Shown: positions 8,620 to 62,795 of the stretch, piece after piece
How the letters are laid out: every line of letters starts with the position of its first letter
Numbering within the stretch: the first letter of the stretch is position 1
Virus record (IMG/VR): IMGVR_UViG_3300031227_007858
DNA: 64,000 nucleotides
Strand: one strand, 5' to 3'
Origin: a virus
Program-made: the position numbers and the translations under genes
Notes under the pieces: generated by a model
Seen by the model: the letters and a program-made list of their open reading frames with translations, nothing else
What the model was told of the DNA's origin: nothing
Database searches by the model: none

Positions 8620-9290
8620 TGGCTGTAGATTCAAAGAATTTAGTTTCTAGAATAGATATTAGATATGGAGATTTTACTAATTTAGTTTGTAGAGTAAATA
8701 AAGTCTCTAGATATGGATTAAAAGTGTATAGTTCAAAAGATTCAACTAAATTTACATTGATAACTCCAAAAGTAGCTACTGTTGTTAGCTCTGGTAGAGT
8801 AACAATGTCAGATAGTTTAATTAGTGGTTCTCCAGATACTTATGGCACAGTTATTGACTTACCAGGAACAAGTGCTATAGATAAAGATAATATTGGAGTG
8901 TTAGTATTTCCTGTAAACTTTACATATAAAATCACTAGCATTCAATATGATATAACTGGGGATGGCACTTATTTGCAGAATATAGGATATATGGATGATG
9001 CTCAAACTTATTATGAACATACTAAAGCTACAGGTGCTATGACTACTTGGGTAGCTGGAGACTTGTCAACTGGCGATACTAACGAATTTGACCATATAGC
9101 TGGAATGTTTCCAGTGGCTTTTTGGGATATTAAAGGACAATCTACATTTACAGAAGTATTGTTATTTGCAGCTACTTGTTATCTAATATATGATACTTCC
9201 GCCACAACTTATAGAAAAGTTTATACTATAGGTTCAGATGGAGTTTCTAAAATAGATTATGTAATTACATTAAAAAATTATGACTATTAA
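8619..9290 (+). CDS. Tail fiber / receptor-binding protein, paralog A
   Basis: Shares the TYG(T/V)xIDLPG...IGV(L/M)V core and the (S/T)xIDYVIxLKNYD C-terminus with the next two genes. N-terminus reuses the NLVSRI/NLVCRVN repeat motif of gene 122..955. Confidence 0.5.
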   Translation: MAVDSKNLVSRIDIRYGDFTNLVCRVNKVSRYGLKVYSSKDSTKFTLITPKVATVVSSGRVTMSDSLISGSPDTYGTVIDLPGTSAIDKDNIGVLVFPVNFTYKITSIQYDITGDGTYLQNIGYMDDAQTYYEHTKATGAMTTWVAGDLSTGDTNEFDHIAGMFPVAFWDIKGQSTFTEVLLFAATCYLIYDTSATTYRKVYTIGSDGVSKIDYVITLKNYDY

Positions 9291-9293
9291 ACA

Positions 9294-10952
9294 ATGAAAG
9301 GTCCAAATAGATTATTAAATCAAGATTTTATGGAGTATGGAAATATTATAGTAAATAATATGTATTTTCCTAATAACTGGCTACCATATGGAACAATAAG
9401 TGGTGATACAAGTTTGGGGCTGGTAATCACTACTACAGTAGCTTATACTTTTGATAGAAGTTTTCAGATGTATAAAGTTGGGGCAAATAATACAGGTATG
9501 TCCCAAACAGTTAATTTTGGATATGACATAACTGGACTTACATTTGACATAGGAATGTGGATTAGAATTATTACCCAGACAGGAGATAGCGGTGTAAAAT
9601 TAAGTTATAAATGGTTAGATTCATCTGGTACTCTAGTAGATAGTCAGGTAACAATTGCTTCATTAACTGCAACTCAAAACTATACTTTATCAAGTGTTAG
9701 TGCAGCAACTGCTCCAAGTAATGCTCAAAGAATATGGTTAGGAATAGAAACTATAGGAGCTAATCAACCAATGTTAGCTTATGTTGACTCTCCTTATATT
9801 TGTGGAGGTACAACTTATGGATTAAAAATATATGATACTAGTGGGAACAATAGTGTAGTTGTGCCAGAAGCTTCAAGTATTATTGCATCTGGGACAGTAT
9901 CTATGCCAAATACTTTACAAGATGATGATACTTATGGAGTTGATATAGATTTACCTGGAAGCGAATATATAGATATTGATAGAATAGGAGTAATGGTGCA
10001 AGCTAGAGATTTTGATTGGAAAGCGATTGTTAATATTATAGAGTGGGATGGTGGTGATAAATTTTGGGGTAATTTTTTTGGAGATAGTGCCGTTACTTAT
10101 TATGAAAAAGCCGTTGATGGAGTTATGACTAGTTGGTCTCCTGGGGATATGACTCCTGGAGATAAAGCTAATTATACTCGTTTAATAAATGTTTTACCAT
10201 TTACTGAGTGGAGTACTTATTCTACTAGTGTTAGAAAAGTTAGATTATTTGCTGGTATAGATTATACTTTTTTAAAAGATGTAGGTGGTGGCTCTTCTAC
10301 TTATAATTTATATGCAAGAGATTATGGTAATGCTGATATGGGTAATATTGGATATATGTTATTGACAAGTGAAGGTATAACTGAGAGACAATATGAATAT
10401 GTGTCGTTAAATAATTATCCTGCTTTATGGTATGGGCCTCATTCAAAATTTGATGTTTATGTTGTTCATGTAAATGGCTCACAAACTCTTTTAGGTGAAA
10501 ATGTTGCTGCAATAGATAATGGTACAGCTTGGTTATGGTCAGAAAATGCAGCACAGCTATTCAGTGCTACTTGGGCGTGTCCAGGTTATGGAGCATGGGT
10601 GGCTACTGACGCTTTAAAATTTGTTTTAAAAGTTAATGGGAGATACATGGGTGGATTTATATCGTGGTATGATTGGAGTTTTTCTATTTCGTTTATTACT
10701 TCTCCACTAGGATGGACTGCTTTAAATGCTACAACTTGGACTATGAATAGATATATTTCGTTTAGTAGAATTGGAGTACATGGTTATGGCAGAGTAAAAG
10801 TGCATTGGGGTACAAGTGGTCATGAAATAAAAATATCTAATATTTCTACCGATTATTCTTCGTCAACTGCACAACAAGTATATAGTATAGGTGATAATGG
10901 TATTTCAGAAGTAGATTATATGATTTATTTAAAGGATTATGACGGGAGTTAA
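9294..10952 (+). CDS. Tail fiber / receptor-binding protein, paralog B, with an extra N-terminal domain
   Basis: Contains the same conserved module (TYGVDIDLPGSEYIDIDRIGVMV ... EVDYMIYLKDYDGS) plus roughly 190 additional N-terminal residues. Confidence 0.5.
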   Translation: MKGPNRLLNQDFMEYGNIIVNNMYFPNNWLPYGTISGDTSLGLVITTTVAYTFDRSFQMYKVGANNTGMSQTVNFGYDITGLTFDIGMWIRIITQTGDSGVKLSYKWLDSSGTLVDSQVTIASLTATQNYTLSSVSAATAPSNAQRIWLGIETIGANQPMLAYVDSPYICGGTTYGLKIYDTSGNNSVVVPEASSIIASGTVSMPNTLQDDDTYGVDIDLPGSEYIDIDRIGVMVQARDFDWKAIVNIIEWDGGDKFWGNFFGDSAVTYYEKAVDGVMTSWSPGDMTPGDKANYTRLINVLPFTEWSTYSTSVRKVRLFAGIDYTFLKDVGGGSSTYNLYARDYGNADMGNIGYMLLTSEGITERQYEYVSLNNYPALWYGPHSKFDVYVVHVNGSQTLLGENVAAIDNGTAWLWSENAAQLFSATWACPGYGAWVATDALKFVLKVNGRYMGGFISWYDWSFSISFITSPLGWTALNATTWTMNRYISFSRIGVHGYGRVKVHWGTSGHEIKISNISTDYSSSTAQQVYSIGDNGISEVDYMIYLKDYDGS

Positions 10953-15141: not shown

Positions 15142-16281
15142 ATGAAAAATACGAAAGTAAAAGAGTGGGAGTCTTGGTTTAATTCTTTCAATTCAGCTAA
15201 AGGATTATTGTATGCCCCATGGTATCAGGCGATTAAAGAGTGGAAAGATGGTAAAAGATTAGCTCCTTTGCCACCTGTAGAAGCAAGCTTAGACCCTATT
15301 AATGTATGTAATTTGAATTGTTCCCACTGTAATGCATCTAGATACTTGTTACATCCACCTAAAGATAGAATGATTAGAATGCCAGATGAGCACTATTTAG
15401 AACTTGTTAAATTCTTAGGAAATTGGGGAGTAAAGGCAATTTGTCATGGAGGGGGAGGAGAACCTACTATGCATACTGCTTTAGGTGAAGCTATGATTAC
15501 TGCTCAAAAATATGGGATGGAGAATAGTATTGCTACTAATGGTATTAATTTTGATGAAGAGTTAATAGATATAGCAGTTAATACTTGTAGATGGGTAGGA
15601 GTATCAGTTGATTCAGCTACTCCTAAAACATATAAAATAGGTAGAAGTGCAGACCGTTTTAGTGATACTATAGGTAATATTGAGAAGCTATGTGATGCTG
15701 TAGATGAGTTTAAAACTAATTGCGATATTGCTTATAAATTTTTAGTGTTTGAATATAATCAAAATGAAATATATGAAGCTTGTAAGTTAGCTAAAGAATT
15801 AGGAGTAAAGGATTTTCATGCTAGACCTGCAGATTTAAGTCATCAAGGAATGGATGAACAATATAAAGGAACAGCTCAACCTTATAGTATAGACTTAGTT
15901 AAAGAACAGTTTGAGAAGTGTCATGACCTTGAAGATGATAATTTCCACGTATATACTATTGTTCATAAATTTGATGAGAACTTTATACCTCGCAAAGATT
16001 TTTCTCAATGTTATGCATCTCCTTGTTGTTTACAGATATGTCCTGATGGATCATTGTTTCTATGTCCAGACCAGAGATATAAAGATTTCTTTAAGTTAGG
16101 AGAACATTACCCTGATGTAACAGAGATAAAAAGAGTTTGGGGTAGTAGGAGACATTATGATTTAGTATTTAATAGTGGTAGAAAAGCTTGCAGTACTAGA
16201 TGTACATTTAATACTTATTGTAAACAAGCAGAAGAATTATTTATGAATGATAATGATCCTATGTGTAAAAACTTTATTTAG
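15142..16281 (+). CDS. Radical SAM enzyme with a SPASM/twitch-like C-terminal Cys cluster
   Basis: CNLNCSHC (CxxxCxxC) near the N-terminus. C-terminal CYASPCCLQICPDGSLFLCPD. Confidence 0.7.
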   Translation: MKNTKVKEWESWFNSFNSAKGLLYAPWYQAIKEWKDGKRLAPLPPVEASLDPINVCNLNCSHCNASRYLLHPPKDRMIRMPDEHYLELVKFLGNWGVKAICHGGGGEPTMHTALGEAMITAQKYGMENSIATNGINFDEELIDIAVNTCRWVGVSVDSATPKTYKIGRSADRFSDTIGNIEKLCDAVDEFKTNCDIAYKFLVFEYNQNEIYEACKLAKELGVKDFHARPADLSHQGMDEQYKGTAQPYSIDLVKEQFEKCHDLEDDNFHVYTIVHKFDENFIPRKDFSQCYASPCCLQICPDGSLFLCPDQRYKDFFKLGEHYPDVTEIKRVWGSRRHYDLVFNSGRKACSTRCTFNTYCKQAEELFMNDNDPMCKNFI

Positions 16282-18481: not shown

Positions 18482-19033
18482 ATGACTACATTAGCGAGAC
18501 TTGAAGAGTTAAATAAAGAATATACAAGCATAGTTGGTACTGATTTTATTCAACAGCATTTGGAAGAAGTTGCACAAGTAGTTGACCATATAGGAGACAA
18601 GAAGTTTAGTTATTATGTAGATATAGGACTTGCTCGTGCAGGAAGTGTCTGGCTATATGCTAATACTGTATGTGAGTCAGGGGCAACTCTTTTAGGTATA
18701 GATGTTGTTGTAACAGTGGAAGCTTTAAAAGCTTTAAAAGTTTTAAAAGAAAGAGGTTTTACTATTGATACTATACAGAGACCAGCTATTAGATGTGTAG
18801 CTGATGTGAAAGATGACATTGAATTATTACATATAGATGCTCAACATAGCTATGCTGCTGTTAGTGAAGAGTATTGGGCTTATTCTAGAAAAGTTAAAGA
18901 TGGTGGCGTTGTTTTGTTACATGATACAATGCTACATGAAGGTTGTATTAAATTTAGAGAAGAATTAGAAAGAGAAGGTAAAAATATTAAAACTTTTGGA
19001 GACTCACTTGGAATCTCATTAATAAGAATATGA
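18482..19033 (+). CDS. Class I SAM-dependent methyltransferase (Methyltransf_24 / TylF-MycF / CmcI-like)
   Basis: LLHIDAQHSY ... GGVVLLHD matches the (L/F)IDxDHxY ... GG(I/V)xxxDD pattern of this family. Paralogs at 25525 and 33862. Confidence 0.5.
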   Translation: MTTLARLEELNKEYTSIVGTDFIQQHLEEVAQVVDHIGDKKFSYYVDIGLARAGSVWLYANTVCESGATLLGIDVVVTVEALKALKVLKERGFTIDTIQRPAIRCVADVKDDIELLHIDAQHSYAAVSEEYWAYSRKVKDGGVVLLHDTMLHEGCIKFREELEREGKNIKTFGDSLGISLIRI

Positions 19034-20106
19034 AAAAAGTAAGTTTTTTATTAACTAAAGAATTTTTATTGAAGGAATATATTTTAAACAAAAAATCTTT
19101 TAAGAAAATAGCTCAAGAATTAAATATTTCTTCATCAAGTATAAAAAGATATTTAATTTATCATGATATTAAAATAAGGAGTGTATCTGAATCTCTTAAA
19201 GGACATACTCCTTGGAATAAAAATAAAAAAATTGGAATAATTCCAAAATCTGCTTTTAAAAAAGGGAATATTCCTTGGAATAAAGATTTAACTAAAGAAA
19301 CAGATAAACGGGTATTTAAAAACGCCCAAAAAATTTCTAAAGCTCTTAAAGGGCAAACTTCTTCTCAAAAAGGTAGAATTTATGTTCCTAGAGAGATTCG
19401 CTATTGTGCTTGTGACTGTGGTCAGAATTTTGAATGTAGAATAACTGATACAAAGAGATATATAAAGAATCATCAACCAAGGAGAATGAATTTAAGGCCT
19501 CCTCAATATGCAATAGATAATTTAACAAAATATGTAAAAGAGAATATGAAAAATCATCCACTTTCAGAAGAACATAAGAAAAAAATAGGAGATAGTAATA
19601 GGGGTAAAAAACGTTCTGAAGCGGCAAGATTGAAAATGAGTAAATCAGCTAAAAATAAGAAAGTATCTGTGGAAACCAGAAATAAATTATCTTTGAGTTC
19701 TAAATTAATGTGGGCCAAAGAAGAAATAAGAAATAAAATTACAAAAGCTGTTTTAAAAGGATTAAAAATAAAACCTAATAAACCAGAAAAGCTATTAAAT
19801 AAATTATTACAACAAATATTACCAAAAGAATATAAATTTGTGGGAGATGGAAAAGTAATAATAAATGGTTTTAACCCTGATTTTGTGAATGTAAATGGTC
19901 AGAAAAAAATCATAGAGCTATATGGAGATTATTGGCATAACAGAAAAGAGGTTATAGAAAGAGATGGAAGACGATTAATTGCTTACAAAAAATATGGTTA
20001 TAAAACATTAATAATTTGGGAACATGAACTAAAGGATTTAGATAAAATTAAAAAAAGAATAATGGAGTTTAATAATGTCAAAAGTAATTTTAATAAAACC
20101 CAATGA
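19030..20106 (+). mobile_element. Freestanding homing endonuclease: NUMOD3-like repeats plus C-terminal Vsr-like nuclease
   Basis: G(N/H)IPWNK...K(A/G)LKG NUMOD3-like units. C-terminal KPNKPEKLLNKLL...NPDFVNVNGQKKIIELYGDYWH...YGYKTLIIWEHELKDL is near-identical to 4249 and 42193. Confidence 0.6.
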
Positions 20107-21313
20107 TATTTTACAATATCAAAATCTTAATCATTTAAAAGCCATTGAACCGCCCATGTGGTTAACGATTTTAGCAAATTATTTTAAATCGGAAAAAATT
20201 ATTGATATGTCTGCACTAAATTTATCTATTATAGAAACAATTGAACAAATAATACAATATAAACCAGATAAAGTAGTGTTATTGAGTACTGGAAACCATC
20301 CAAGTGCATACATACAGTCTAGGGCTCAAATAGAGCGTATAGGAGACATGTTACGAGCATTAAATATAGAAACTGATACTTTATACAGCTTACCAATTAA
20401 TCCTATGGATTATGAATCTCCTAGATGGGATTTATTAGATATGAGTAAATATAGGGCTCATAATTGGCACTGTTTTGGAGGGTTAAAAAGAAATAACTAT
20501 GGTGTTGTTTATAGTAGTGTAAGTTGTCCGATGAAATGTGAATTTTGCAACATTCATAATTTTTACATTACTCCTTATAAACAAAGAGATGTAAATGCAG
20601 TATTAAAAGATTTTCATGATTTATATAGTCAATATGGAATAACTAATTTTAAAATAATGGATGAGTTATTTGTAACTAAAGCTAAAAGAACTTACGAGAT
20701 ACTTGATGGACTTAAAGATATAGGTGATAAAATAAATATTTGGACTTATGCTCGTATAGATACTGTAGATGAGAAGTTATTAAAAGAGTTGAGAGCTGCT
20801 GGTATTAGATGGCTATCTTATGGTATTGAGACAGGTAATGATGAAATAAGAAAGAGTATAATGAAAGGACAGTTTACTAAAGATGACATTAAAGATATTG
20901 TGCAAATGACTAAAGATTGTGGAGTAAATATTATAGCTAATTATATGTTTGGATTTTGGGACGATAATTATAATACTATGAGAGAAACATTAGATTTTGC
21001 TAAAGATTTAAATTGTGAGTTTGCTAATTTTTATGCAACAGTAGCTTATCCTGGTAGCAAGTTTTTTGATGTAATGAAAGAGAGAGGAGTAGAGTTATCT
21101 GATGATTATAACGATTATGCTCAATTTAGTAAAAGTTTTAAACCATTACCAACAAAACACTTAACATCTCAAGAAGTATTGGAGTTTAGGGATAAAGCTT
21201 TTCAAGATTTTTTTACTTCTCCAAAATACTTGTCAATGATGAAACAAAAATTTGGTAATGGGGTTATTGATGAAATTAAACAAATGACAAAAATTAATAT
21301 AAAAAGAACATGA
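20075..21313 (+). CDS. Radical SAM enzyme with an N-terminal B12-binding-like domain (class B-like)
   Basis: CPMKCEFC (CxxxCxxC), preceded by about 150 aa with the Rossmann-like pattern of B12-binding radical SAM proteins. Confidence 0.65.
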   Translation: MSKVILIKPNDILQYQNLNHLKAIEPPMWLTILANYFKSEKIIDMSALNLSIIETIEQIIQYKPDKVVLLSTGNHPSAYIQSRAQIERIGDMLRALNIETDTLYSLPINPMDYESPRWDLLDMSKYRAHNWHCFGGLKRNNYGVVYSSVSCPMKCEFCNIHNFYITPYKQRDVNAVLKDFHDLYSQYGITNFKIMDELFVTKAKRTYEILDGLKDIGDKINIWTYARIDTVDEKLLKELRAAGIRWLSYGIETGNDEIRKSIMKGQFTKDDIKDIVQMTKDCGVNIIANYMFGFWDDNYNTMRETLDFAKDLNCEFANFYATVAYPGSKFFDVMKERGVELSDDYNDYAQFSKSFKPLPTKHLTSQEVLEFRDKAFQDFFTSPKYLSMMKQKFGNGVIDEIKQMTKINIKRT

Positions 21314-29281: not shown

Positions 29282-30072
29282 TGAAAGTAACAAGAACAGT
29301 AGATTACAATAAAGAACATATGTTTGCTTGTATGGGGTTTCCAAGGGGGGGTACTCATTATGTTCAAGAAGTTATGAAATATGCCAAATTTGATGTAGGA
29401 CATGCTAGAATAGAGTCAGAAGGAAATAGTGATTGGAGAATAATATTATCTTTAGATAAAAGAGTTAACCCTCATGATAATGGTTTAACTTTTGATTCTA
29501 ATACTCCTAATAAAATGTGTTTATATGCTGGCAAGTCGTTAGTTGAACACTTTAATCATGATAAATATATAGAAAAGTTAGCTTATACGAATAAGTATTA
29601 CAGAGAAACATTAAATAAAGTTATTAATATAAAATATAAATATAAACTATTTTTTGTTAGAAATCCATGGCATACTATTTCAACTTGGACTCAAATGTAT
29701 GAGTATCCTTATGGTGAAGGTGGATTACCTTCTTTAGTTTATTTTTCTAAAAGTGGAATAAATTTTGGAGAATTTAACAATGTTATTCATCGTAGTTGTA
29801 TAATGTTCGTAGAGTATGCTGAGTTAATGGAAAAATATGCTGATAAAGTTATTAGAATTGAGAATATATTTGAAGAGTTAAATCAATTTTTTATTGAAAA
29901 TGAATTAGAAAAACATATTATGAAACCAATAGAAATTAAAACATGGAAAGGAACTTTTCATGGACAAACTGATTTTCATAATCAACGCATATCAAAGTCT
30001 GAAATAGAAAAAAATGTTTCAGAAGAATTATTTAATAAAATATCAAAATTTATTGGAAGGATATATAAATGA
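29281..30072 (+). CDS. Putative PAPS-dependent sulfotransferase
   Basis: GFPRGGTHYV resembles the 5'-PSB PKSGTTW. LFFVRNPWHTISTW resembles the 3'-PB RDP.D..(V)S. The two motifs lie about 100 aa apart, as in sulfotransferases. Confidence 0.45.
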   Translation: MKVTRTVDYNKEHMFACMGFPRGGTHYVQEVMKYAKFDVGHARIESEGNSDWRIILSLDKRVNPHDNGLTFDSNTPNKMCLYAGKSLVEHFNHDKYIEKLAYTNKYYRETLNKVINIKYKYKLFFVRNPWHTISTWTQMYEYPYGEGGLPSLVYFSKSGINFGEFNNVIHRSCIMFVEYAELMEKYADKVIRIENIFEELNQFFIENELEKHIMKPIEIKTWKGTFHGQTDFHNQRISKSEIEKNVSEELFNKISKFIGRIYK

Positions 30073-31475
30073 AAACTCAACAATGTCAAGTAAGTATTAT
30101 TCTACCTACTTTAAGACCTGAAGTAGTTAAAAATTGTCTTGAAAGGATTTACCACACTACTAAAAATCTAGATTATGAAATTATATTGGTTACTCCTATT
30201 ATAGGCATTAAAGACAAGTTACGAGAGTGTAAAGCTTTTGATTATATAAAAGTGATAGAAGAACAAGAAAAAGCAGGAGTTAGTAGAGCTTTTGAACTAG
30301 CTATTCCACATATTAAAGGAGAGTATATATTTTTATTATCAGATGACCAGTTAATTCAAACTGACTGTATTCTCAATCTATATGAATACTCTAAAAATCA
30401 AGAGATTGATAGGGAAAATTTTATAGTTACAGGTCCTAGATATACATCTGTTTGGGGAAGTCATTGGGACGAAACTATTTTTGACCTTTATTACCCTTGT
30501 AATCCTTTTTTTCATAAAGAGATATTAAAATCTGTAGATAATGTTATATTTGATACTTATCTTACTAATTATTATGGAGATCCAGATTTTGCTCTAAGAG
30601 CTAGAGATAAGGGTTATCCTGTAATACCGTGCCCTACAGCATGGATGGAAAATACTAATGCTTTTGATGAAGTAGAAAAAGAAAGAAGAGATGATAATTT
30701 TAATAATGACCATGATAATTTTGTTAAAAGATGGGAAAGTAAGTTTGATGTTCCTGATAACTCATCTGCACAGATAAATAAAGGAAAATCAATTCAAGGT
30801 GGGGGTATATCATCTGAATTTTGTTCTAGAATTATGCATCATATTCAACATGAAGATTTTGAGTGTATTGTGGGGGAGATATCGTTGCGAGAAAATATAA
30901 ATGCTACAACACATTACTATTTAGAAGAACAATATGTTTCAGATGTTTTTGGATATATAGTATCAATGGGAAAACTTTTTCCAACATTTTTAAAAACACG
31001 AAATTATCCTCTACAAAGAAATCTGTTCAGATTGTTTTTATCTGAAATGAAAAATCCTGTTTTAGATTTTAAAACTGTTATAAATAAAGCTAAATGGATA
31101 GACTCTGAAATTGTTAGAAATTTGATTATGTCTGGATATATTATCTATTTAAAAAATAAAAAAGAAGGTAAAACTGATTTTATATTTATAAAAGACTATA
31201 AAGATACTAATATTGGATATAAAGATAAACATTTTTATGATACAGTACATAATCTTAAAACAACTACTTTTTGTGAGATGATAGGATTATTAGATGATAT
31301 CTCTTCAAAATTTCCAGTAATAGACTATTTAGAGTTAAAGCTATTTGAAACATATTTATCAAATAATCAAATATCTTTCCAATATATGTTTAATGCTTTA
31401 GAGTATTTTACTAATAAAAAGATTGATGAAAGAAGAAAGGGTAAGTTTGATGCTTATACATGGGATTTTAAATGA
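30069..31475 (+). CDS. Glycosyltransferase family 2-like with a C-terminal extension
   Basis: VSIILPTLRPE N-terminal motif and an LLSDDQL DxD motif. 468 aa. Confidence 0.5.
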   Translation: MKTQQCQVSIILPTLRPEVVKNCLERIYHTTKNLDYEIILVTPIIGIKDKLRECKAFDYIKVIEEQEKAGVSRAFELAIPHIKGEYIFLLSDDQLIQTDCILNLYEYSKNQEIDRENFIVTGPRYTSVWGSHWDETIFDLYYPCNPFFHKEILKSVDNVIFDTYLTNYYGDPDFALRARDKGYPVIPCPTAWMENTNAFDEVEKERRDDNFNNDHDNFVKRWESKFDVPDNSSAQINKGKSIQGGGISSEFCSRIMHHIQHEDFECIVGEISLRENINATTHYYLEEQYVSDVFGYIVSMGKLFPTFLKTRNYPLQRNLFRLFLSEMKNPVLDFKTVINKAKWIDSEIVRNLIMSGYIIYLKNKKEGKTDFIFIKDYKDTNIGYKDKHFYDTVHNLKTTTFCEMIGLLDDISSKFPVIDYLELKLFETYLSNNQISFQYMFNALEYFTNKKIDERRKGKFDAYTWDFK

Positions 31476-33865: not shown

Positions 33866-34335
33866 GTAGTAGGGCAAATGCATTAATTCAATTAGCAAAG
33901 AAATGTAATTGTAATACTTATGCGGAGATAGGGTGCATGACAGGTAATACTGCAGTTAAATTACATAAGAAACATCCTCTCAGTGATGTTATTTTAGTAG
34001 ATATAATTAATAATAAATTGAGGAAAGATTTAGTGAGCAACTTACCATATAAATTTTATCATATACCATCTGTCGATGCTTCTGATAAGATTTTAGATAA
34101 CTCTATAGATTTATGTTTTATAGATGCTGACCATGGATATAAATATGTTTTAGCAGATATCAAAGCATGGTTACCTAAAGTAAAAGCAGATAAAATTATT
34201 TGTGGTCATGATTATAGTAAAACTCAACATCCTGGAGTTGTTAAAGCAGTACACGAAAGTTTTAAAGATGAAGAGATTAATTTAATTCCAGATTTAGATT
34301 ATAATGATGTTTATGTTTGGTGGGTACGAGTATAA
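33862..34335 (+). CDS. Class I SAM-dependent methyltransferase (Methyltransf_24-like), paralog
   Basis: YAEIGCMTGNTAV ... DLCFIDADHGYKYV ... KIICGHDY. Confidence 0.5.
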   Translation: MSSRANALIQLAKKCNCNTYAEIGCMTGNTAVKLHKKHPLSDVILVDIINNKLRKDLVSNLPYKFYHIPSVDASDKILDNSIDLCFIDADHGYKYVLADIKAWLPKVKADKIICGHDYSKTQHPGVVKAVHESFKDEEINLIPDLDYNDVYVWWVRV

Positions 34336-35504
34336 TCTAATGTTTCTTTTGTAGCATTAATCATATAATTAAAATCCTTAGCGGGCATCCACTCGTGGAA
34401 AGGAAATGACATCATATTATCAAAGAAGAGGTCTGTGTTGGGGCAATTAGCTTCACCATAACCTCTTTTTTTGAATAGTTCGTATCTATTTAAAGGATAA
34501 TATTGTACATTCATTTCTATTCCATATGTCTCTATTAACCTAGAGATTATATTATCTCTATTTCGCATACATTTTACAGGCATTAAATGATATGAAGATG
34601 AAATATTAAATGGTATTTTTTGAAATACTATGTCAGGATAGTTACTTAATGCTTCTTTAAAACTCCAAAACATAGATTCTCTATTAGAGTTTAATTCATC
34701 TATTCTATCAAGTAATAATATACCAACAAGTGCTTGTATTTCTGACATATTATATTTATAGGGTAAATCATTAGATACATCTGTAACATTAGTCATCGCT
34801 GGTTTCCAATATTTATCTTGATTTTCAAATGGTTTATTACCAAACATTCTCAATGGAGCTACTTTTTTAGCTAGTTCTTCATCTCTAACATATAAAGCAC
34901 CACCTTCACCTAAAGTAGTTAAATTCTTTTGAGCATGAAAACTAAATACTCCAAAATCACATAATACTCCAGCTTTTTTATTATTGTATTTAGCACCAAA
35001 TGATTGAGCTGCATCTTCTACTAATGGAATATCAAATTCTCTAAACTTATCTATATCACAAGGTATTCCATATAAATGTACTAATATAATAGCTTTTGTT
35101 TTATTAGTAATTTTCTTTTTTACATCTTCATACGACATTACCAAAGTATCAGGATCAATATCTGCCCAAACTAATTTAGCTCCCCTTCTAAGAAATGGTA
35201 TAGCTGTAGCACAAAATGTATGTGATGGTAATATTATTTCATCTCCTTCTTTAATTTCTAATAACTCAGCAGTTAGCTCTAAAGCAGATGTTCCACTATT
35301 AACAGCAAATATATCCCCTTGTTCAACATCTAAATAATCTTTTAATTTAGTTTCAAATGCATCTTTATATGCTCCTTGAGTTAGTGCTTCAGTACTTCTA
35401 AGAAAAGCATTAATAGTTTTTATTTCTTGTTCATTTAATAACACACTTCTAATTGACCAAGGTATTTTAAAGTTCATTTTTTCTCCTGTATTTTTAATAT
35501 CCAT
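34311..35504 (-). CDS. DegT/DnrJ/EryC1/StrS-family PLP-dependent sugar aminotransferase
   Basis: FAVNSGTSALELT, ILPSHTFCATA, VEDAAQSFGA and FSFHAQKNLTTLGEGG (Schiff-base Lys in SFHxxK). Confidence 0.8.
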   Translation of the reverse strand: MDIKNTGEKMNFKIPWSIRSVLLNEQEIKTINAFLRSTEALTQGAYKDAFETKLKDYLDVEQGDIFAVNSGTSALELTAELLEIKEGDEIILPSHTFCATAIPFLRRGAKLVWADIDPDTLVMSYEDVKKKITNKTKAIILVHLYGIPCDIDKFREFDIPLVEDAAQSFGAKYNNKKAGVLCDFGVFSFHAQKNLTTLGEGGALYVRDEELAKKVAPLRMFGNKPFENQDKYWKPAMTNVTDVSNDLPYKYNMSEIQALVGILLLDRIDELNSNRESMFWSFKEALSNYPDIVFQKIPFNISSSYHLMPVKCMRNRDNIISRLIETYGIEMNVQYYPLNRYELFKKRGYGEANCPNTDLFFDNMMSFPFHEWMPAKDFNYMINATKETLDYTRTHQT

Positions 35505-38206: not shown

Positions 38207-38285
38207 TGGCAGGGGTAGAAAGAATCGAACTTTCCCAATGAGATTTGGAATCTCATTCGCCTTTATCCTTGGAACATGTACCCCC
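38207..38285 (-). tRNA. tRNA-Trp (anticodon CCA) candidate, 79 nt, with an irregular D-arm
   Basis: Minus strand reads GGGGGTA...[AC stem (A)TGAGA / loop TTCCAAA / TCTCA(T)]...T-arm GAAAG-TTCGATT-CTTTC, acceptor TACCCCT, G, CCA. U33 and A37 are present. The D-stem pairs poorly. Confidence 0.5.
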
Positions 38286-39644
38286 AAGTAATTTTGTAAA
38301 ATTTGTATAATAATGCTCTAAACTAGGAGCATTATCTTTTAAAATACTTTTATAAAAGGATATCTCAGGATAGAACCTATCTTCTATTAAACCTTCATTT
38401 ATACACACATTTCTTATCTTGGTACCATAGTATGGAGCCAGTATAGCAAGCCCTACGCTGTCTGGTTGGCACTTTTTTAAGAAACTAATAGTATCACCTA
38501 GGTTAGCATCGTTTTCATCAGGAAATCCCATCATAATGTTTGCTGTAGTCCTTATTCCTATTTTTTTACAGTTTTTAAAAGCCTGTATGTAAGTCTCGTT
38601 TTTAATAGGTTTATTGAGCATAGTTTTCCTAAACCACTCATTCCCTACTTCTACACCGATAGAGATAGTATCACAATTACTATCTTTTAAAGCTTGTAAT
38701 TTACTCATATCAAGTAAACTATCTGCTCTTGTTTGTATAAAGAATGGCAGATTAATTCTTTTATAACCCTTTATAAACTTTTTAAATCTATCTCTGCTCA
38801 TTGTTAAAAAGTTCTCATCATGAAACCAGATTAATTCTAGATTATGCCAACTAGTCAATAAACTAATTTCCAATAATGAATCCATAATATCTTTTTCTCT
38901 ACGATATTTACCACAATCTTTAAATAACTCTTGATATGTAGAATTAACACAAAAACTACATTGATGAGGACATCCTCTACTCATCTCAAAACACCCTGTT
39001 CTCCACATTTTACCTCTATAAGGTTTTAGCAAATGTCTCTCATCAAATACTTCCCAATTTTGATAAGTAAAAGGTTTCCAATCATAAAAATCAGTTTGTA
39101 AATTAACTGTTATTTTTTTATTACCATTTTTAATAGCCAATCCTTTTATCTTTTTAATACTATCTCCAGACTCTAATTTATTAGCTAATTCTACAATAGC
39201 TCTTTCTCCTTCTCCACCACATAAAATATCTACATTTTTATCTTGAATAAAAAACTGTGGGGCTACTGTTGGAAATATACCTCCTACAATTATAGGTATA
39301 TTAAAGTATCTTTTTATGTGAGACATTAATTTTTTAGCTAAAGTATAATTGTTCTCTACAATAGATACTCCTACTAATTTAGGATTGAAATCTTTTATTA
39401 TATTACATAATTCTTGATATACATCTTTTTTATCTTTACTCCATATACTTTCAGCTTCAGTGTGTTGTACTAATCCTAACTTTTCTCTTTCTTTATGGTC
39501 AATGTAAGATTTTTCCATCATAAATGTAGTATCAAATATTTTTACATCATGTCTAGCATCTCTTAATACTCCTGCAAGTACACTTAATCCGAGAGGTATC
39601 ATTGGATAAGATTCTTTATTTGGATAAACTAATAATATGTTCAT
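38253..39644 (-). CDS. B12-binding radical SAM enzyme (class B-like)
   Basis: N-terminal MNILLVYPNKESYPMIPLGLSVLAGVLRDARHDVKIFD (B12-binding-like domain) plus MSRGCPHQCSFC (CxxxCxxC). The 3' end overlaps the tRNA-Trp candidate by about 33 nt. Confidence 0.7.
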   Translation of the reverse strand: MNILLVYPNKESYPMIPLGLSVLAGVLRDARHDVKIFDTTFMMEKSYIDHKEREKLGLVQHTEAESIWSKDKKDVYQELCNIIKDFNPKLVGVSIVENNYTLAKKLMSHIKRYFNIPIIVGGIFPTVAPQFFIQDKNVDILCGGEGERAIVELANKLESGDSIKKIKGLAIKNGNKKITVNLQTDFYDWKPFTYQNWEVFDERHLLKPYRGKMWRTGCFEMSRGCPHQCSFCVNSTYQELFKDCGKYRREKDIMDSLLEISLLTSWHNLELIWFHDENFLTMSRDRFKKFIKGYKRINLPFFIQTRADSLLDMSKLQALKDSNCDTISIGVEVGNEWFRKTMLNKPIKNETYIQAFKNCKKIGIRTTANIMMGFPDENDANLGDTISFLKKCQPDSVGLAILAPYYGTKIRNVCINEGLIEDRFYPEISFYKSILKDNAPSLEHYYTNFTKLLGGTCSKDKGE

Positions 39645-46879: not shown

Positions 46880-47671
46880 TTAACTAACTGGATACCCAAA
46901 GTATTCACATTTATCACATAATGGTACCTCGTTTCTTTTACCATCAATATGTAATTGTAAATATTTTTGTCTTAAATCTCCGTTCCAAATTTCATCTAGA
47001 GTATTTTTATACACATTACCTATCACACCTACTCTCTCAGGATCAAATCTGACACACATTGAAACATCTCCATTAACTGATATAGCTAAATGATTTAATG
47101 CTTCTACACAAATACCAATTTCAGGTATAGTTGGTGTTTTTTCATATTTAAAACTACCCATAGGTGAGTGTAATGTTCTAGTAGCGATTAATCCAGGTAA
47201 TTCATACCATCTTTCACTATTTGTTATTTCTCCTAACAACCTGTAAATCACTCTAGGCTTTTTAATACCTTTAATTTCTAAAAACTTTTTAACTATCCCA
47301 TATTGCTCATCTGCTTCAGGATCATTTTCAAAAACAGATATTGTTATAGTATCTAAATTATCTATTATTTTATTAGCATCTTTTAGTAATAACTTTCCAT
47401 TAGTATCTAAACATCTAATTTGTTTTTTAAATAGATGTAGAGCATCAAATAGCTTAGAATATAAAAATGGTTCTCCATTATTATGAAACTGTACTACTAT
47501 GTTTTTAGGTAGTTGTTGAGCAATAGATTTAACTAAACTAAATTCCATATCATCATTAAAAGTAGCTAAATGAGGACAATCTTTTTCTATCTTTCTTCTA
47601 CCACACATCCAACATCTTTTATTACACTTATTTGTTAGTTCGAGATGGATACAATATAATCCTGTTAACAT
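46880..47671 (-). CDS. Radical SAM enzyme with SPASM/twitch-like C-terminal cysteines
   Basis: CIHLELTNKCNKRCWMC (CxxxCxxC). C-terminal CVEAL...CVRF...CDKCEY. Confidence 0.65.
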   Translation of the reverse strand: MLTGLYCIHLELTNKCNKRCWMCGRRKIEKDCPHLATFNDDMEFSLVKSIAQQLPKNIVVQFHNNGEPFLYSKLFDALHLFKKQIRCLDTNGKLLLKDANKIIDNLDTITISVFENDPEADEQYGIVKKFLEIKGIKKPRVIYRLLGEITNSERWYELPGLIATRTLHSPMGSFKYEKTPTIPEIGICVEALNHLAISVNGDVSMCVRFDPERVGVIGNVYKNTLDEIWNGDLRQKYLQLHIDGKRNEVPLCDKCEYFGYPVS

Positions 47672-58268: not shown

Positions 58269-58742
58269 TTATTTTTCAGCCCATTTAAGCAAATCTTTTC
58301 CTAGTCTTTTAGCTGTTTTATTTTGAAATGTTAAATGACAACTGTGACATAAAGTTATTGCATTATTTTTATTCCAACAAAGTTCAGGATATTGTTCTTT
58401 TGGCTTTATGTGATGAACATCCAATTTTTTATGATATCCTTTTAAATCTTTTTGTTTTATTCCACATAATTGACAAGTATAGTTATCTCGTTCTCTGATT
58501 TTCTCACAAAATTGACTCCATTTAATCCAGCCTCTAGAAATACTCCCATTTAATATAGCTTCTAATTCTGTATGTTTTCTTTTTAAAGAAACCCTACCTT
58601 TCATTTTTTGACTTTGTTTTTCTTTACTTTCTTTAGTATGATGCTTACCTGATATCCAAGGAATTATACCTTTTAATGCTTCGCTTATTTTTCTTTTATG
58701 TTCTTTGGTAAATGGTTTTCTTTTATAAACTCCTGTTGGCAT
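58269..58742 (-). mobile_element. Freestanding HNH homing endonuclease with NUMOD3-like repeats
   Basis: KPFTKEHKRKISEALKG and HHTKESKEKQSQKMKG repeats. HNH core CQLCG...HHIKP...LCHSCH. Confidence 0.65.
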
Positions 58743-59848: not shown

Positions 59849-61897
59849 TTACAATTCCTTTATCTTTTCCCAAGGGAATTTATCTCTTCCAAAATGACCA
59901 TAAGATGCAGTCTCTTCATATATAGGTTTTCTTAAATCTAAATACTCTATTATTGCTTGTGGTCTTAAATCAAAATTCTTTTTAATTATGTCTATTAAAT
60001 TCTCATCATTCAAACCACCTAAATCAGTTTTTACAAATATACTAACAGGTTCAATTACACCTATCGCATAAGCTATTTGAACTAAACATCTACGACCATA
60101 TTTGCTAGCTACAATACTCTTAGCAATGTGTCTAGCCATATAAGCACCGCTTCTATCTACTTTAGTAGGGTCTTTACCACTATTCCCAGTTACAAATACT
60201 CTATTATTTCTTCTAACTATTAATATACCGCTTGGTACAGTAAAGCAATACATTTTAGAATCTTTTGTTACGCACGGCTTAATATTTACTTTTTCTTTTC
60301 TACTATAACCATTTTTTATTCCAACATATTTATTCTTTTTTAGATTGACAATGTAACAAATAGATTTAATTGTATATTTATTTTTCTTTAATCCTACCCT
60401 ATCATCAATTAAAATAGAAGTATTAGTATGATAAATAGACATAAATATAAACTGTACAAAATCTGCATCTTCTTTTTGAGTTGTTCTAAAACACTTATTA
60501 AGTATACCATCCCATTGAGTTACTTCTTTAGCTATAATAGCCATTTGCTCTTTATTTATTTTGTTTCTAAAACACTCAACCAAACTTTTACTGATAATAG
60601 GGGGGATAAAATAAAATCTTGTAAAATTATCAGAATTTGTTTTTTCAGTAAAAAAAGTATTGGAGTTTAATAATAACTGTTTTAATCTTTCGATTTTATT
60701 TTTCTTTTTTAAACTTATTCTAAACTTATTTTTTTCTTTATTTATAGTACCATCAGCACAAAATGCTACTTGTAACTGTATTTGATCATCTGATAAATTT
60801 ATTCCTTTACATAGAGAATTATATTTAAAATAAACAGGTATTTCACCTCCAAACCCTAATTTTGCATTTTGATGCTGTTTTATTACATCTTTAACTTTTT
60901 TCTTATTAAGGTTATTTTTAGATGTTTTATAAACAATATCATGGTTTTCTGATAACACCATATCTATATTATAAGGAGTATAAAAATGATACATTTTATC
61001 AGCTTTACATTCTATATAATCTATAGGTTTTACAAATTCTAATATCCCATTATTCCATTGGGCAATTAAATCATTTTTATTATAAGAATTTATTTTTTTC
61101 CACCCATTAAGTGTTAAATATTCTGTTTCTGAATCTAAACAAAATGCTCCACCCCCATGACCTACTAAACCACCATAAGTATCTACTATAATCTTTCTGC
61201 CTGTTAACCCTGTATCAGCCACAGGTCCACCAATTTCAAATTTACCTGTAGGATTGATATGTATTTTCAAATCATTAAAGCGTAAACAAGGTGGGACTGT
61301 TTTATTAATAACTTTCTCAATAATATCTTGCTTTAAATATTCATAATAATCATAGTCTATACTTTCATGTTGGCTACTTATTACTATAGTAGTAACTTTC
61401 TCTGGAATATGTCCGTTATATTCAACAGTTACTTGACTTTTACCATCAGGTTTTAAATAACCCACTTCTTGACTCTTTCTAACATCTGCTAATTTTTTAG
61501 TTAATTTATGAGCTAAATATATAGGTAGAGGCATATACTCTTTTGTTTCATCAGTAGCATAACCTATCATCATTCCTTGGTCTCCTGCCCCACCTGTATC
61601 TACGCCTTGAGCAATATCTTTGGATTGGGAATGAATACTGTTTAATATACCAAAATCATCTGGATTATATCCTATTCTAGTTAATACTCTTTTAACTGTT
61701 TTATTAATCTCACATTCACCTTTAGTAGTTACTTCTCCAGCTACTATTATTAATCCATTAGTAGCCATTGTTTCTACAGCTACTCTACTCATAGGGTCTT
61801 GTTTTAATAAATCATCTAATATAGCGTCACTTATTTGGTCACAAACTTTATCTACATGTCCTTCAGTTACGCTTTCTGCTGTTATCAGTTTTTTCAC
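59849..61897 (-). CDS. metK: S-adenosylmethionine synthetase (methionine adenosyltransferase) interrupted by an intein
   Basis: Extein carries MetK hallmarks: N-terminal ...SVTEGHVDKVCDQISDAILD, GMMIGYA, GGPVADTGLTGRKIIVDTYGG, and GHGGGAF|...|SGKDPTKVDRSGAY, which is split by 320 aa. Extein total is 362 aa. Confidence 0.8.
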   Translation of the reverse strand: MKKLITAESVTEGHVDKVCDQISDAILDDLLKQDPMSRVAVETMATNGLIIVAGEVTTKGECEINKTVKRVLTRIGYNPDDFGILNSIHSQSKDIAQGVDTGGAGDQGMMIGYATDETKEYMPLPIYLAHKLTKKLADVRKSQEVGYLKPDGKSQVTVEYNGHIPEKVTTIVISSQHESIDYDYYEYLKQDIIEKVINKTVPPCLRFNDLKIHINPTGKFEIGGPVADTGLTGRKIIVDTYGGLVGHGGGAFCLDSETEYLTLNGWKKINSYNKNDLIAQWNNGILEFVKPIDYIECKADKMYHFYTPYNIDMVLSENHDIVYKTSKNNLNKKKVKDVIKQHQNAKLGFGGEIPVYFKYNSLCKGINLSDDQIQLQVAFCADGTINKEKNKFRISLKKKNKIERLKQLLLNSNTFFTEKTNSDNFTRFYFIPPIISKSLVECFRNKINKEQMAIIAKEVTQWDGILNKCFRTTQKEDADFVQFIFMSIYHTNTSILIDDRVGLKKNKYTIKSICYIVNLKKNKYVGIKNGYSRKEKVNIKPCVTKDSKMYCFTVPSGILIVRRNNRVFVTGNSGKDPTKVDRSGAYMARHIAKSIVASKYGRRCLVQIAYAIGVIEPVSIFVKTDLGGLNDENLIDIIKKNFDLRPQAIIEYLDLRKPIYEETASYGHFGRDKFPWEKIKEL
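60182..61141 (-). mobile_element. Intein (320 aa) in metK at the GGGAF/SGKDP junction, with a central endonuclease-like region
   Basis: Starts CLDSETEYLTLNG (block A-like) and has a block B-like TPYNIDMVLSENHDIVYKT (ENH). Ends ...FVTGN followed by Ser(+1). Interior QLQVAFCADGTI is LAGLIDADG-like. Boundaries computed from codon positions. Confidence 0.7.
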
Positions 61898-62339: not shown

Positions 62340-62795
62340 TTAAACCCTCCTAGCTCTTAATACTGTATTTTTACTAACATTTAAAATTTTTGCTATTTTT
62401 CTAGAAGAAAATCCTTTCTTCGTTAAATTTTTAACTTTTTCTGCTATCTTATATCTGATTCTATGATATTGTTTAGAACCTAAACGTTGCTTATTATGTA
62501 ATGTGCAATGCTCAGATTGGGTCATTATTTGTAAATTGTTTTTATTATTATTAGTAACATCTCCATCTATATGATGAACAACATACTCTTTTGGGCAGTT
62601 CATTATTTTATTAGCTTTTTTTCTACAATATGTTTCTACTGTAGATTTAGCCAAATTATTTAAATTGTCAATACCACCTTTCCAATTAACGTGCTCTTTA
62701 CCTGACTTAAAGCTAGTATTAGTAGCGTGTCTAGGCATTTTACTTCTCCTTTTTAATTTTATTTTTAAAATCTCTTTCAAATAATTTACAAGCAT
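62340..62795 (-). mobile_element. Freestanding HNH endonuclease with a C-terminal HTH
   Basis: HHIDGDVTNNNKNNLQIMTQSEHCTLH HNH core. C-terminal KKGFSSRKIAKILNVSKNTVLRARR helix-turn-helix. Confidence 0.6.

Follow-up and report, generated by a model that had tools for sequence, protein, structure and literature searches.

The 64,000-nucleotide stretch of viral DNA analysed here (IMG/VR record IMGVR_UViG_3300031227_007858; referred to as the window) carries on its minus strand a gene for the S-adenosylmethionine (SAM) synthetase MetK, whose open reading frame (ORF) contains an additional 320 codons. The insert separates an N-terminal part of MetK (N-extein) from a C-terminal part (C-extein), and the junctions read ...VGHGGGAF^CLDSETEY...RVFVTGN^SGKDPTKVDRS, where the caret marks the border between extein and insert. 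The coordinates of all elements are given in Table 1. An earlier interpretation that used only the letters of the DNA (the sequence-only reading) had proposed an intein exactly between GHGGGAF and SGKDPTKVDRS. The translation proved this placement to be correct to the base, and the four residues named for the junctions, a Cys at the start, a Gly in the penultimate and an Asn in the last position and a Ser directly behind the insert, were all read there.

Outside the insert the precursor is a regular MetK. Its match to the NCBIfam metK equivalog TIGR01034 is divided into two stretches and scores 475 bits at E 1.5e-142, the cut-off being 309, and Pfam detects each of the three S-AdoMet synthetase domains (PF00438, PF02772, PF02773). 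Removal of the intein in silico yielded a MetK of 362 amino acids, which could be aligned over its entire length with MetKs of solved structure (E 2.6e-119 for the best match) with zero gap at hgggaf-sgkdptkvdrs, in agreement with the collinearity that had been claimed. The extein is of full length without a frameshift or stop codon, and the motifs GHVDK, GRKIIVDTYGG and SGKDPTKVDRS are kept. The insertion site is equivalent to F263^S264 of E. coli MetK (GGGAFSGKD; Met1 counted as 1) and is located in the glycine-rich loop whose Lys contacts the triphosphate. The masses predicted for spliced MetK (40.0 kDa) and for the free intein (37.4 kDa) agree with the earlier estimates of about 41 and 37 kDa. 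A protein identical to the precursor is also encoded on metagenomic contigs of 71-74 kb.

To compare the locus with other phage MetKs we used the whole precursor for a tblastn search of 50,697 phage records and required a match covering at least 80% of the precursor as indication of the insert. None of the 329 MetK-matching records reached this value; among the matches listed, only about 52% of the precursor, the extein part, was covered, in at least two pieces. Of 28 MetK loci on viral contigs, those matched over the full length were likewise uninterrupted. Because of the exact boundaries, the gap-free alignment with solved MetKs and the 329 insert-free phage records, the insert can be regarded as real, precise and without counterpart in homologous proteins; the comparison with intein-less metK genes, which had been recommended as a check of the site, therefore confirmed it.

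The insert is an intein with a nested LAGLIDADG homing endonuclease. This identification is based on family profiles and on the fold and not on the intein models of Pfam and NCBIfam, none of which matched the insert. The search with Pfam intein models that had been suggested as a check was thus negative, and it was the family profiles and the fold that gave an intein. A single-sequence search against PDB sequences also gave no match, and the sole match of this kind was the Pfam model LAGLIDADG_3 with 20.5 bits (E 5.8e-4), which is below the threshold of 22.5. The AlphaFold model calculated from the single sequence had a pLDDT of 34.9. This was remedied by family alignments: an AF2 model based on an alignment of 39 sequences reached a pLDDT of 94.9 and a pTM of 0.92. 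Using this model, a Foldseek comparison with the PDB revealed full-length endonuclease-containing inteins as top matches (PhoVMA 7qst with E 8.8e-13, followed by 7qsu, 1dq3 and 1vde); by name, PhoVMA, TliVMA, PI-PfuI, PI-SceI and PI-TkoII were found. The middle domain matched I-DmoI (E ~1e-4, probability 1.00) and the endonuclease domains of PI-PfuI and PI-SceI, and the HINT part matched the AceL NrdHF intein, hedgehog and Prp8 inteins. A family profile restricted to the HINT domain detected the AceL NrdHF intein in the PDB (6zgq, E 3.4e-10), and the remaining weaker matches were inteins too.

The hallmarks of an intein, namely the HINT fold, Cys1, the S-x-x-H of block B and the border Asn320^Ser+1, are all present in the insert; the penultimate His (G:6), which is typical but not obligatory, is replaced by Gly319. 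The block A- and block B-like motifs of the sequence-only reading correspond to CLDSETEYLTLNG and to S-E-N-H. Its LAGLIDADG-like segment contains two motifs, each ending in an acidic residue (Asp130 and Asp211), within an alpha-beta-beta-alpha-beta-beta-alpha fold. Here the match to the I-DmoI fold supports the assignment, whereas Pfam LAGLIDADG_3 taken alone stays below its threshold. The intein itself is borne out by the HINT and LAGLIDADG folds, the junction residues, the in-frame insertion into an active-site loop and the occurrence of the same element, with identical C...N^[S/C/T] boundaries, in unrelated host proteins.

Among 1.84 billion cluster representatives, a family profile built from 12 members recovered 10,540 proteins at E <=1e-3 and 1,074 at E <=1e-30; the top 150 matches all align over essentially the whole 320 positions. 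Residue frequencies were determined for 183 full-length members. Cys at residue 1, His at B:10, Cys at F:4 and Asn at G:7 were found in 183/183. Position B:7 is Ser, Cys or Thr, and B:12 is V/I/M/F/L in nearly all members, C/N/Q in 8 and never Trp. A His never occurs at F:13, Thr occupies G:5 in 174/183, and G:6 is Gly in 172/183 and His in 3. The residue at +1 is Ser in 93, Cys in 84 and Thr in 6 cases. Both Asp residues of the LAGLIDADG motifs are conserved (180/183 each), as is Lys223 (167/183). The intein of the window carries the full signature of the family, consisting of Cys1, Ser64, His67, Ile69, Asp130, Asp211, Cys299, Thr318, Gly319, Asn320 and Ser+1. A six-frame search revealed no second copy of the family in the window.

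One relative of the family, P0001 (337 aa, on a 4.5-kb contig), is free-standing with almost no flanking extein and is 44% identical to the intein. Cys1, His B:10, Cys F:4 and the Asn at the end have all disappeared from it, while both LAGLIDADG motifs are kept. It resembles an intein that has become a homing endonuclease gene standing on its own. Since this protein without extein has lost all four residues, it serves as a natural control and supports the functional interpretation of the splicing residues.

The first homology search had revealed 12 relatives with an element of about 320 amino acids, always starting with C and ending in [T/S]-[G/A]-N before an S or C, inserted in other MetKs (same loop), in the P-loop of a dNMP-kinase-like protein (ISGKAR^...^CGKDS) and in the Walker A motif of an ABC ATPase (...^CGKST). 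With the profile, a metallophosphatase and terminase large subunits (TerL) were found as further hosts. Clustering of the exteins and subsequent Pfam scans assigned the hosts to RecD2-like helicases (60), MetK (26 sequences, 4 of them from the window's own cluster; about 23 distinct clusters including this one), TerL (about 23), Toprim/primase-like proteins (21), DnaB-like helicases (14), SF2 helicases (8) and several singletons. Relatives are also present in 194 deposited phage genomes, where the genes are annotated as RtcB, primase/helicase, PhoH, RecD, ribonucleotide reductase (RNR), NAMPT or DNA polymerase. The residue at -1 is Gly in 130/183 members, and about 135/183 C-exteins start with [S/C/T]-G-K-[S/T/D], which places the insertion inside the Walker-A loop. 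A preference of inteins for P-loops is in general well documented (PMC4760082, PMC5050341). Although MetK does not belong to the P-loop NTPases, its GAF^SGKD loop is similar to the usual site of the family, G^[S/C]GK[S/T/D], and it was probably this similarity that opened MetK to invasion. Ranked by identity to the window intein, the first 20 distinct relatives (44-50%) all reside in MetK, and those in helicases follow with 36-42%. This distribution suggests one or a few ectopic invasions of MetK, probably followed by spread among MetK alleles.

Taken together, we favour the reading that the window carries a mobile, splicing-competent intein which uses a Cys1-initiated route and sits in the loop of an otherwise intact MetK on a probable phage genome; we assign to it a probability of about 0.82. 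According to this model a precursor of 77 kDa would be translated, and the HINT domain would excise itself and join Phe252 to Ser573, yielding active MetK of 40 kDa and a free endonuclease of 37 kDa. Splicing would start with an N-S acyl shift at Cys1, aided by Ser64 and His67 of block B, followed by transfer of the N-extein to Ser+1, cyclisation of Asn320 and an O-N shift that completes the join. These steps would proceed without the usual penultimate and block-F histidines. For Cys299 a central place in the active site is proposed, at the position of the usual block-F Asp, with a role as helper or relay. On the DNA, the joined site of alleles lacking the intein would be cleaved by the endonuclease, and the intein would be copied in during repair (homing). 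The family lives mainly in Walker-A loops of the type G^[S/C]GK[S/T] and would probably have entered MetK via the look-alike GAF-SGKD.

Several points weigh against this reading. The insertion, the fold, the conservation of the residues, the distribution over many hosts and the intact extein are direct results, whereas splicing as such, the order of the chemical steps, the endonuclease activity and the route of invasion are what we infer from the sequence. Both His residues that normally aid Asn cyclisation (F:13 and G:6) are absent, and the residue at -1 is Phe, unlike in most of the family. Cys1 as initiator is not secure, because the nearest solved relative splices through a Cys equivalent in the alignment to Cys299. 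A search of viral contigs for an almost identical metK without the intein was negative; the closest MetKs there are no more than 52% identical, so that no date can be given for homing at this locus. The equal GC content at third codon positions (GC3) of intein and exteins indicates a long-resident intein and not a recent arrival.

Table 1. Positions of the intein-bearing metK gene, of other features of the window and of the TerL loci. A caret marks the intein insertion point; coordinates with an L number refer to other contigs.
Feature	Position	Strand	Description
MetK precursor ORF	59849..61897	(-)	682 aa, GTG start, 77.4 kDa; N-extein, intein and C-extein
N-extein	61142..61897	(-)	MetK residues 1-252; C-terminal end ...TYGGLVGHGGGAF; N-terminal and central domains, start of C-terminal domain
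Intein	60182..61141	(-)	Residues 253-572 of precursor; 320 codons/aa, 37.4 kDa; HINT splicing domain and nested LAGLIDADG homing endonuclease
Block A, CLDSETEYLTLNG	61103..61141	(-)	Cys1 at 61139..61141, N-terminal nucleophile
Block B, NIDMVLSENHDIVYK	60926..60970	(-)	S-E-N-H; Ser64 B:7, His67 B:10, Ile69 B:12 (not Trp)
LAGLIDADG endonuclease domain	60392..60829	(-)	About intein residues 105-250; Foldseek I-DmoI, sub-threshold Pfam
LAGLIDADG motif 1, LQVAFCADG	60746..60781	(-)	Asp130 at 60752..60754
LAGLIDADG motif 2, IIAKEVTQWDG	60506..60544	(-)	Asp211 at 60509..60511
Block F, KMYCFTVPSGILIVRR	60209..60256	(-)	Cys299 (60245..60247) F:4; no His at F:13
Block G and residue +1, RVFVTGN^S	60179..60202	(-)	Thr318 G:5, Gly319 G:6, Asn320 G:7; Ser+1 at 60179..60181
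C-extein	59849..60181	(-)	SGKDPTKVDRS... through natural MetK C-terminus and stop codon
Predicted endonuclease target, intein-free allele			GTAGGTCATGGGGGTGGAGCATTT^AGTGGTAAAGACCCTACTAAAGTA; predicted from sequence
Joined (intein-free) metK site			GTAGGTCATGGGGGTGGAGCATTTAGTGGTAAAGACCCTACTAAAGTA
Putative homing-endonuclease ORF	58269..58742	(-)	HNH-type with NUMOD3; about 1.1 kb from metK
Putative homing-endonuclease ORF	62340..62795	(-)	HNH-type; about 0.4 kb from metK
Putative homing-endonuclease ORF	19030..20106	(+)	NUMOD3 and DUF559
Radical-SAM group of ORFs	15142..16281; 20075..21313; 30069..31475	(+)
Radical-SAM group of ORFs	34311..35504; 38253..39644; 46880..47671	(-)	38253..39644: B12/radical-SAM ORF
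tRNA-Trp (CCA), predicted	38207..38285	(-)	Overlaps 3' end of ORF 38253..39644
TerL intein loci	L001:7081-7092; L003:4120-4131; L005:4081-4092; L039:2656-2668; L040:2611-2623; L041:2623-2634
TerL intein loci	L047; L048		Just upstream of match
Intein-free TerL alleles	L044; L045; L046; L049; L050

The explanation that competes best accepts the same intein and differs in the splicing route. Class 3 inteins are defined by the lack of an N-terminal nucleophile, the triplet W(B:12)-C(F:4)-T(G:5) and a branched thioester at block F (PMC3196547, PMC7891396). In a route of this type Cys299 would attack the N-terminal junction, a branched thioester would be formed and the N-extein would then pass to Ser+1; Cys1 would have been retained for another reason, for example a Cys1-Cys299 disulfide as redox switch or a two-step thioester relay. 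The invariant Cys at F:4 and the prevalent Thr at G:5 represent two of the three class 3 signature residues (PMC3196547), and both, Cys299 and Thr318, are present in the intein of the window. In addition, the closest solved structure by profile, the AceL NrdHF intein, is a proven class 3 intein whose branch-point Cys124 aligns with Cys299 (PMC7891396), and it shares the Ser at B:7, a hydrophobic residue other than Trp at B:12, the lack of His at F:13 and G:6 and the Ser at +1. The loss of Cys F:4 in P0001 along with the other splicing residues fits such a role as well. However, the invariance of Cys1 would be unexpected for a dispensable residue, Trp at B:12 does not occur anywhere in the family, and the operational definition demands that the N-terminal Cys is absent (PMC7891396). 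Furthermore, class 1 inteins with a Cys at F:4 are known and are polyphyletic (PMC3196547), and the authors who described the Bethlehem RDF intein, which shares the signature, regarded it as class 1 (PMC5050341). We therefore consider a class 3-type route improbable.

A Cys1-initiated route with Cys299 as active-site helper is probably the correct description, since Cys1 never varies and B:7 is Ser, Thr or Cys as in class 1. Typical class 3 inteins possess neither an N-terminal Cys nor a class-1-like B:7 (PMC3196547, PMC6195587). Filing the window intein as class 3 was rejected because of the Cys1 found throughout the family and the missing Trp at B:12. As both candidate nucleophiles are invariant, one may also consider a relay from Cys1 via Cys299 to Ser+1, or a Cys1-Cys299 redox switch that gates SAM synthesis during infection, with the Ala1-containing AceL NrdHF intein as a derivative without Cys1; we regard this idea as tentative and rather doubtful. 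If it were true, the AceL NrdHF intein would show in a present-day element how the class 3 inteins came into being.

The AceL NrdHF split intein (PDB 6ZGQ; Hoffmann et al. 2020, PMC7891396) is related by profile over almost the whole HINT domain and by fold (TM 0.68-0.72 on the target), and its source is a probable phage. Common to both inteins are Ser B:7, His B:10, a hydrophobic residue other than Trp at B:12, Cys F:4, Thr G:5, the absence of His at F:13 and G:6, the terminal Asn and Ser+1. The AceL intein differs in Ala1, in its proven dependence on the block-F Cys and in an atypical M-C-T triplet (PMC7891396); it is naturally split, has a separate GIY-YIG endonuclease gene and resides in the RNR beta subunit. 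In contrast, the intein of the window has the invariant Cys1, is contiguous, contains a nested LAGLIDADG endonuclease and resides in MetK. The canonical class 3 inteins MP-Be DnaB, Msm DnaBi1 and Dra Snf2 share Cys F:4, Thr G:5 and a +1 residue that is usually Ser or Thr; this group is rich in phage members and often found in P-loops (PMC3196547, PMC6195587). They differ by the lack of an N-terminal nucleophile, by Trp at B:12, usually Asp at B:7, and a penultimate His that is kept. None of them was among the PDB matches of the HINT-only family profile.

The best full-length structural matches, the VMA inteins of subunit A of the V/A-ATPase (PI-SceI, PhoVMA, TliVMA; E 1e-12 to 1e-9), have the same architecture of a HINT domain with a nested LAGLIDADG endonuclease. 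Sequence similarity is not detectable, the identity in the structural alignment being 9-12%, and their host is a true P-loop ATPase. VMA inteins sit inside the Walker-A loop (Sce VMA1: GAFG^CGKT), closely resembling GAF^SGKD of MetK. Their penultimate residue is the canonical His, and they are not known to carry a Cys at F:4.

An intein unable to splice would leave MetK as a dead or dispensable passenger with the endonuclease alone being maintained. This would be compatible with the missing penultimate and block-F histidines, with the Phe at -1, which is unusual for the family, and with the accessory nature of a phage metK, whose loss could conceivably be tolerated. The sequence-only reading had questioned splicing competence because of the penultimate Gly. 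The residue was confirmed, but it gives little ground for doubt, as Gly is present at this position in most of the family and the Bethlehem intein splices with it. In mycobacteriophage inteins the penultimate His is poorly conserved (Kelley et al. 2016, PMC5050341), and the Bethlehem RDF intein showed complete splicing with its native Gly316, whereas the exchange G316H led to accumulation of precursor (PMC5050341). Judged by the residue counts, the penultimate Gly is a family trait and not a sign of decay. Moreover, all four invariant splicing residues are intact in the window intein, in contrast to the clearly decayed P0001, which lost all of them. The extein is complete, scores well above the metK cut-off and keeps its conserved motifs, and in about 22 other MetK clusters, whose exteins are intact as well, the intein occupies this loop. 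Since the extein is intact and conserved, a functional MetK has to be produced by splicing. A loss of splicing is for these reasons very improbable.

That the insert is no intein at all but a lineage-specific domain kept in the mature enzyme or a chance fusion of ORFs has a practically negligible probability: apart from the lack of Pfam and NCBIfam intein matches and the empty single-sequence PDB search, the evidence from fold, profile and distribution points to an intein, which splits a strictly conserved active-site loop where no solved MetK has an insertion.

The Bethlehem RDF gene (AY500153, 37577..39295, complement) encodes a phosphoesterase with an intein of 317 aa. Like the intein of the window it is a phage element with Cys1, a T-x-x-H block B (T-A-N-H), a Cys at F:4 (VWCLRVPNG), the end HLTGN^S and a nested LAGLIDADG endonuclease. 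It is a distant relative: the alignment with the family profile is weak (19 bits) but in register, the host is a metallophosphatase and the site GNHD^C is not P-loop-like. Its endonuclease is toxic to E. coli (PMC5050341).

With respect to composition, the G+C content of the insert is 0.236 compared with 0.31-0.33. GC3 amounts to 0.138 in the intein and to 0.143 and 0.164 in the exteins. The dip in G+C is thus due to the amino acid composition and not to foreign codon usage, and low G+C as a sign of a recent foreign origin was rejected.

Within MetK, inteins of the family occupy three registers of one loop: GGGAF^SGKD, GGGT^CNGKD and GGG^C(x)(x)GKD. The shifted registers are found in P0051, P0056, P0058, P0059, P0062 and P0066. 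Since the inteins are about equally related across the registers, the place of insertion has moved by one or two residues. Two metagenomic MetKs, P0013 and P0088, contain two inteins about 20 residues apart, one canonical with the end ...HN^T (in P0013 just before TGRKIVVDTYGG) and one of the family described here. The MetK P0002 on a 173-kb contig (L002:7396-9452) is called as two overlapping ORFs, 7396-8025 with the N and M domains and 8001-9452 with the remainder and the intein; this points to a frameshift upstream of the intein, either real or an assembly error.

The about 23 TerL-resident members show a peculiarity in that the protein ends directly after Ser+1. At all 8 loci that were read, representing seven distinct junction sequences, the codon following Ser+1 is TGA, and ACGGGCAATTC is invariant (8/8). 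The TerL sequence can be followed again from ..LGKT.. or ..PGKT.., in frame 0 in some lineages and in frame +1 in others. In frame 0 the resumption reads TGA-[ATA/GTG/ATG]-TTA-GGN-AAR or TGA-CCA-GGA-AAA and in frame +1 T-GAA-GTG/GGA-TTA-GGN-AAR. Intein-free TerL alleles read GGFGS-GKTF. One of them encodes a protein 100% identical to an intein-containing TerL, with DNA that is about 85-90% identical, and this conservation of the protein at a DNA divergence of about 12% indicates that both halves of the extein are under purifying selection. Re-initiation, readthrough and +1 frameshifting can each account for some of the loci only. The MetK intein of the window has no such stop.

The Pfam model PF14890 (Intein_splicing) misses the family element in the window and in P0083, P0088, P0119, P0133 and P0161, although it does detect other inteins in P0083 and P0088. 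As a consequence of this blindness interrupted genes are mis-annotated as oversized or hypothetical proteins, and such entries are already present in several deposited phage genomes ('hypothetical protein', 'RNA ligase', 'PhoH-like'). An intein-bearing metK should be called as one intein-containing gene.

A search of the literature, in which few subscription journals were covered, gave nothing relevant linking inteins or exteins with MetK, SAM synthetase or methionine adenosyltransferase. As a host for this kind of intein MetK seems to be unreported; it is a new host protein for an already known kind of element, which belongs to a very large phage intein family whose annotation is poor and whose catalytic signature is unusual. 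Inteins are concentrated in ATPases of replication and repair, and SAM synthetase adds a host from central metabolism that is not a P-loop NTPase. The MetK intein offers a concrete case of ectopic spread via motif resemblance (GAF^SGKD and G^[S/C]GK[S/T]). With an intein in the active-site loop SAM production would depend on splicing, and control could be exerted at this step. Among characterised inteins, those nearest to the family splice fast and cleanly, and the family could yield new tools for protein engineering and act as a test bed for the evolution of class 3 splicing.

The window is probably of phage origin. Analysis of 20 large ORFs with PHROGs, Pfam and tblastn revealed a match to a ClpP-like head-maturation protease and a weak similarity to a tail fibre; HNH/NUMOD3 endonucleases, a dCMP deaminase and MazG are also compatible with a phage. 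The designation of the gene as a phage metK is accordingly probable, but the evidence for a phage nature from the window is weak. Three further putative homing-endonuclease ORFs are present, two of which flank metK, and the genome is rich in selfish endonuclease genes. At least four ORFs of the radical-SAM group in Table 1 are of radical-SAM type, and one of these has a B12-binding domain; an aminotransferase and a glycosyltransferase are also present. A modification pathway that consumes SAM appears to be encoded in the window and would account for a SAM synthetase of its own, and the phage MetK would supply SAM next to several radical-SAM enzymes. The B12/radical-SAM ORF overlaps at its 3' end with a predicted tRNA-Trp gene.

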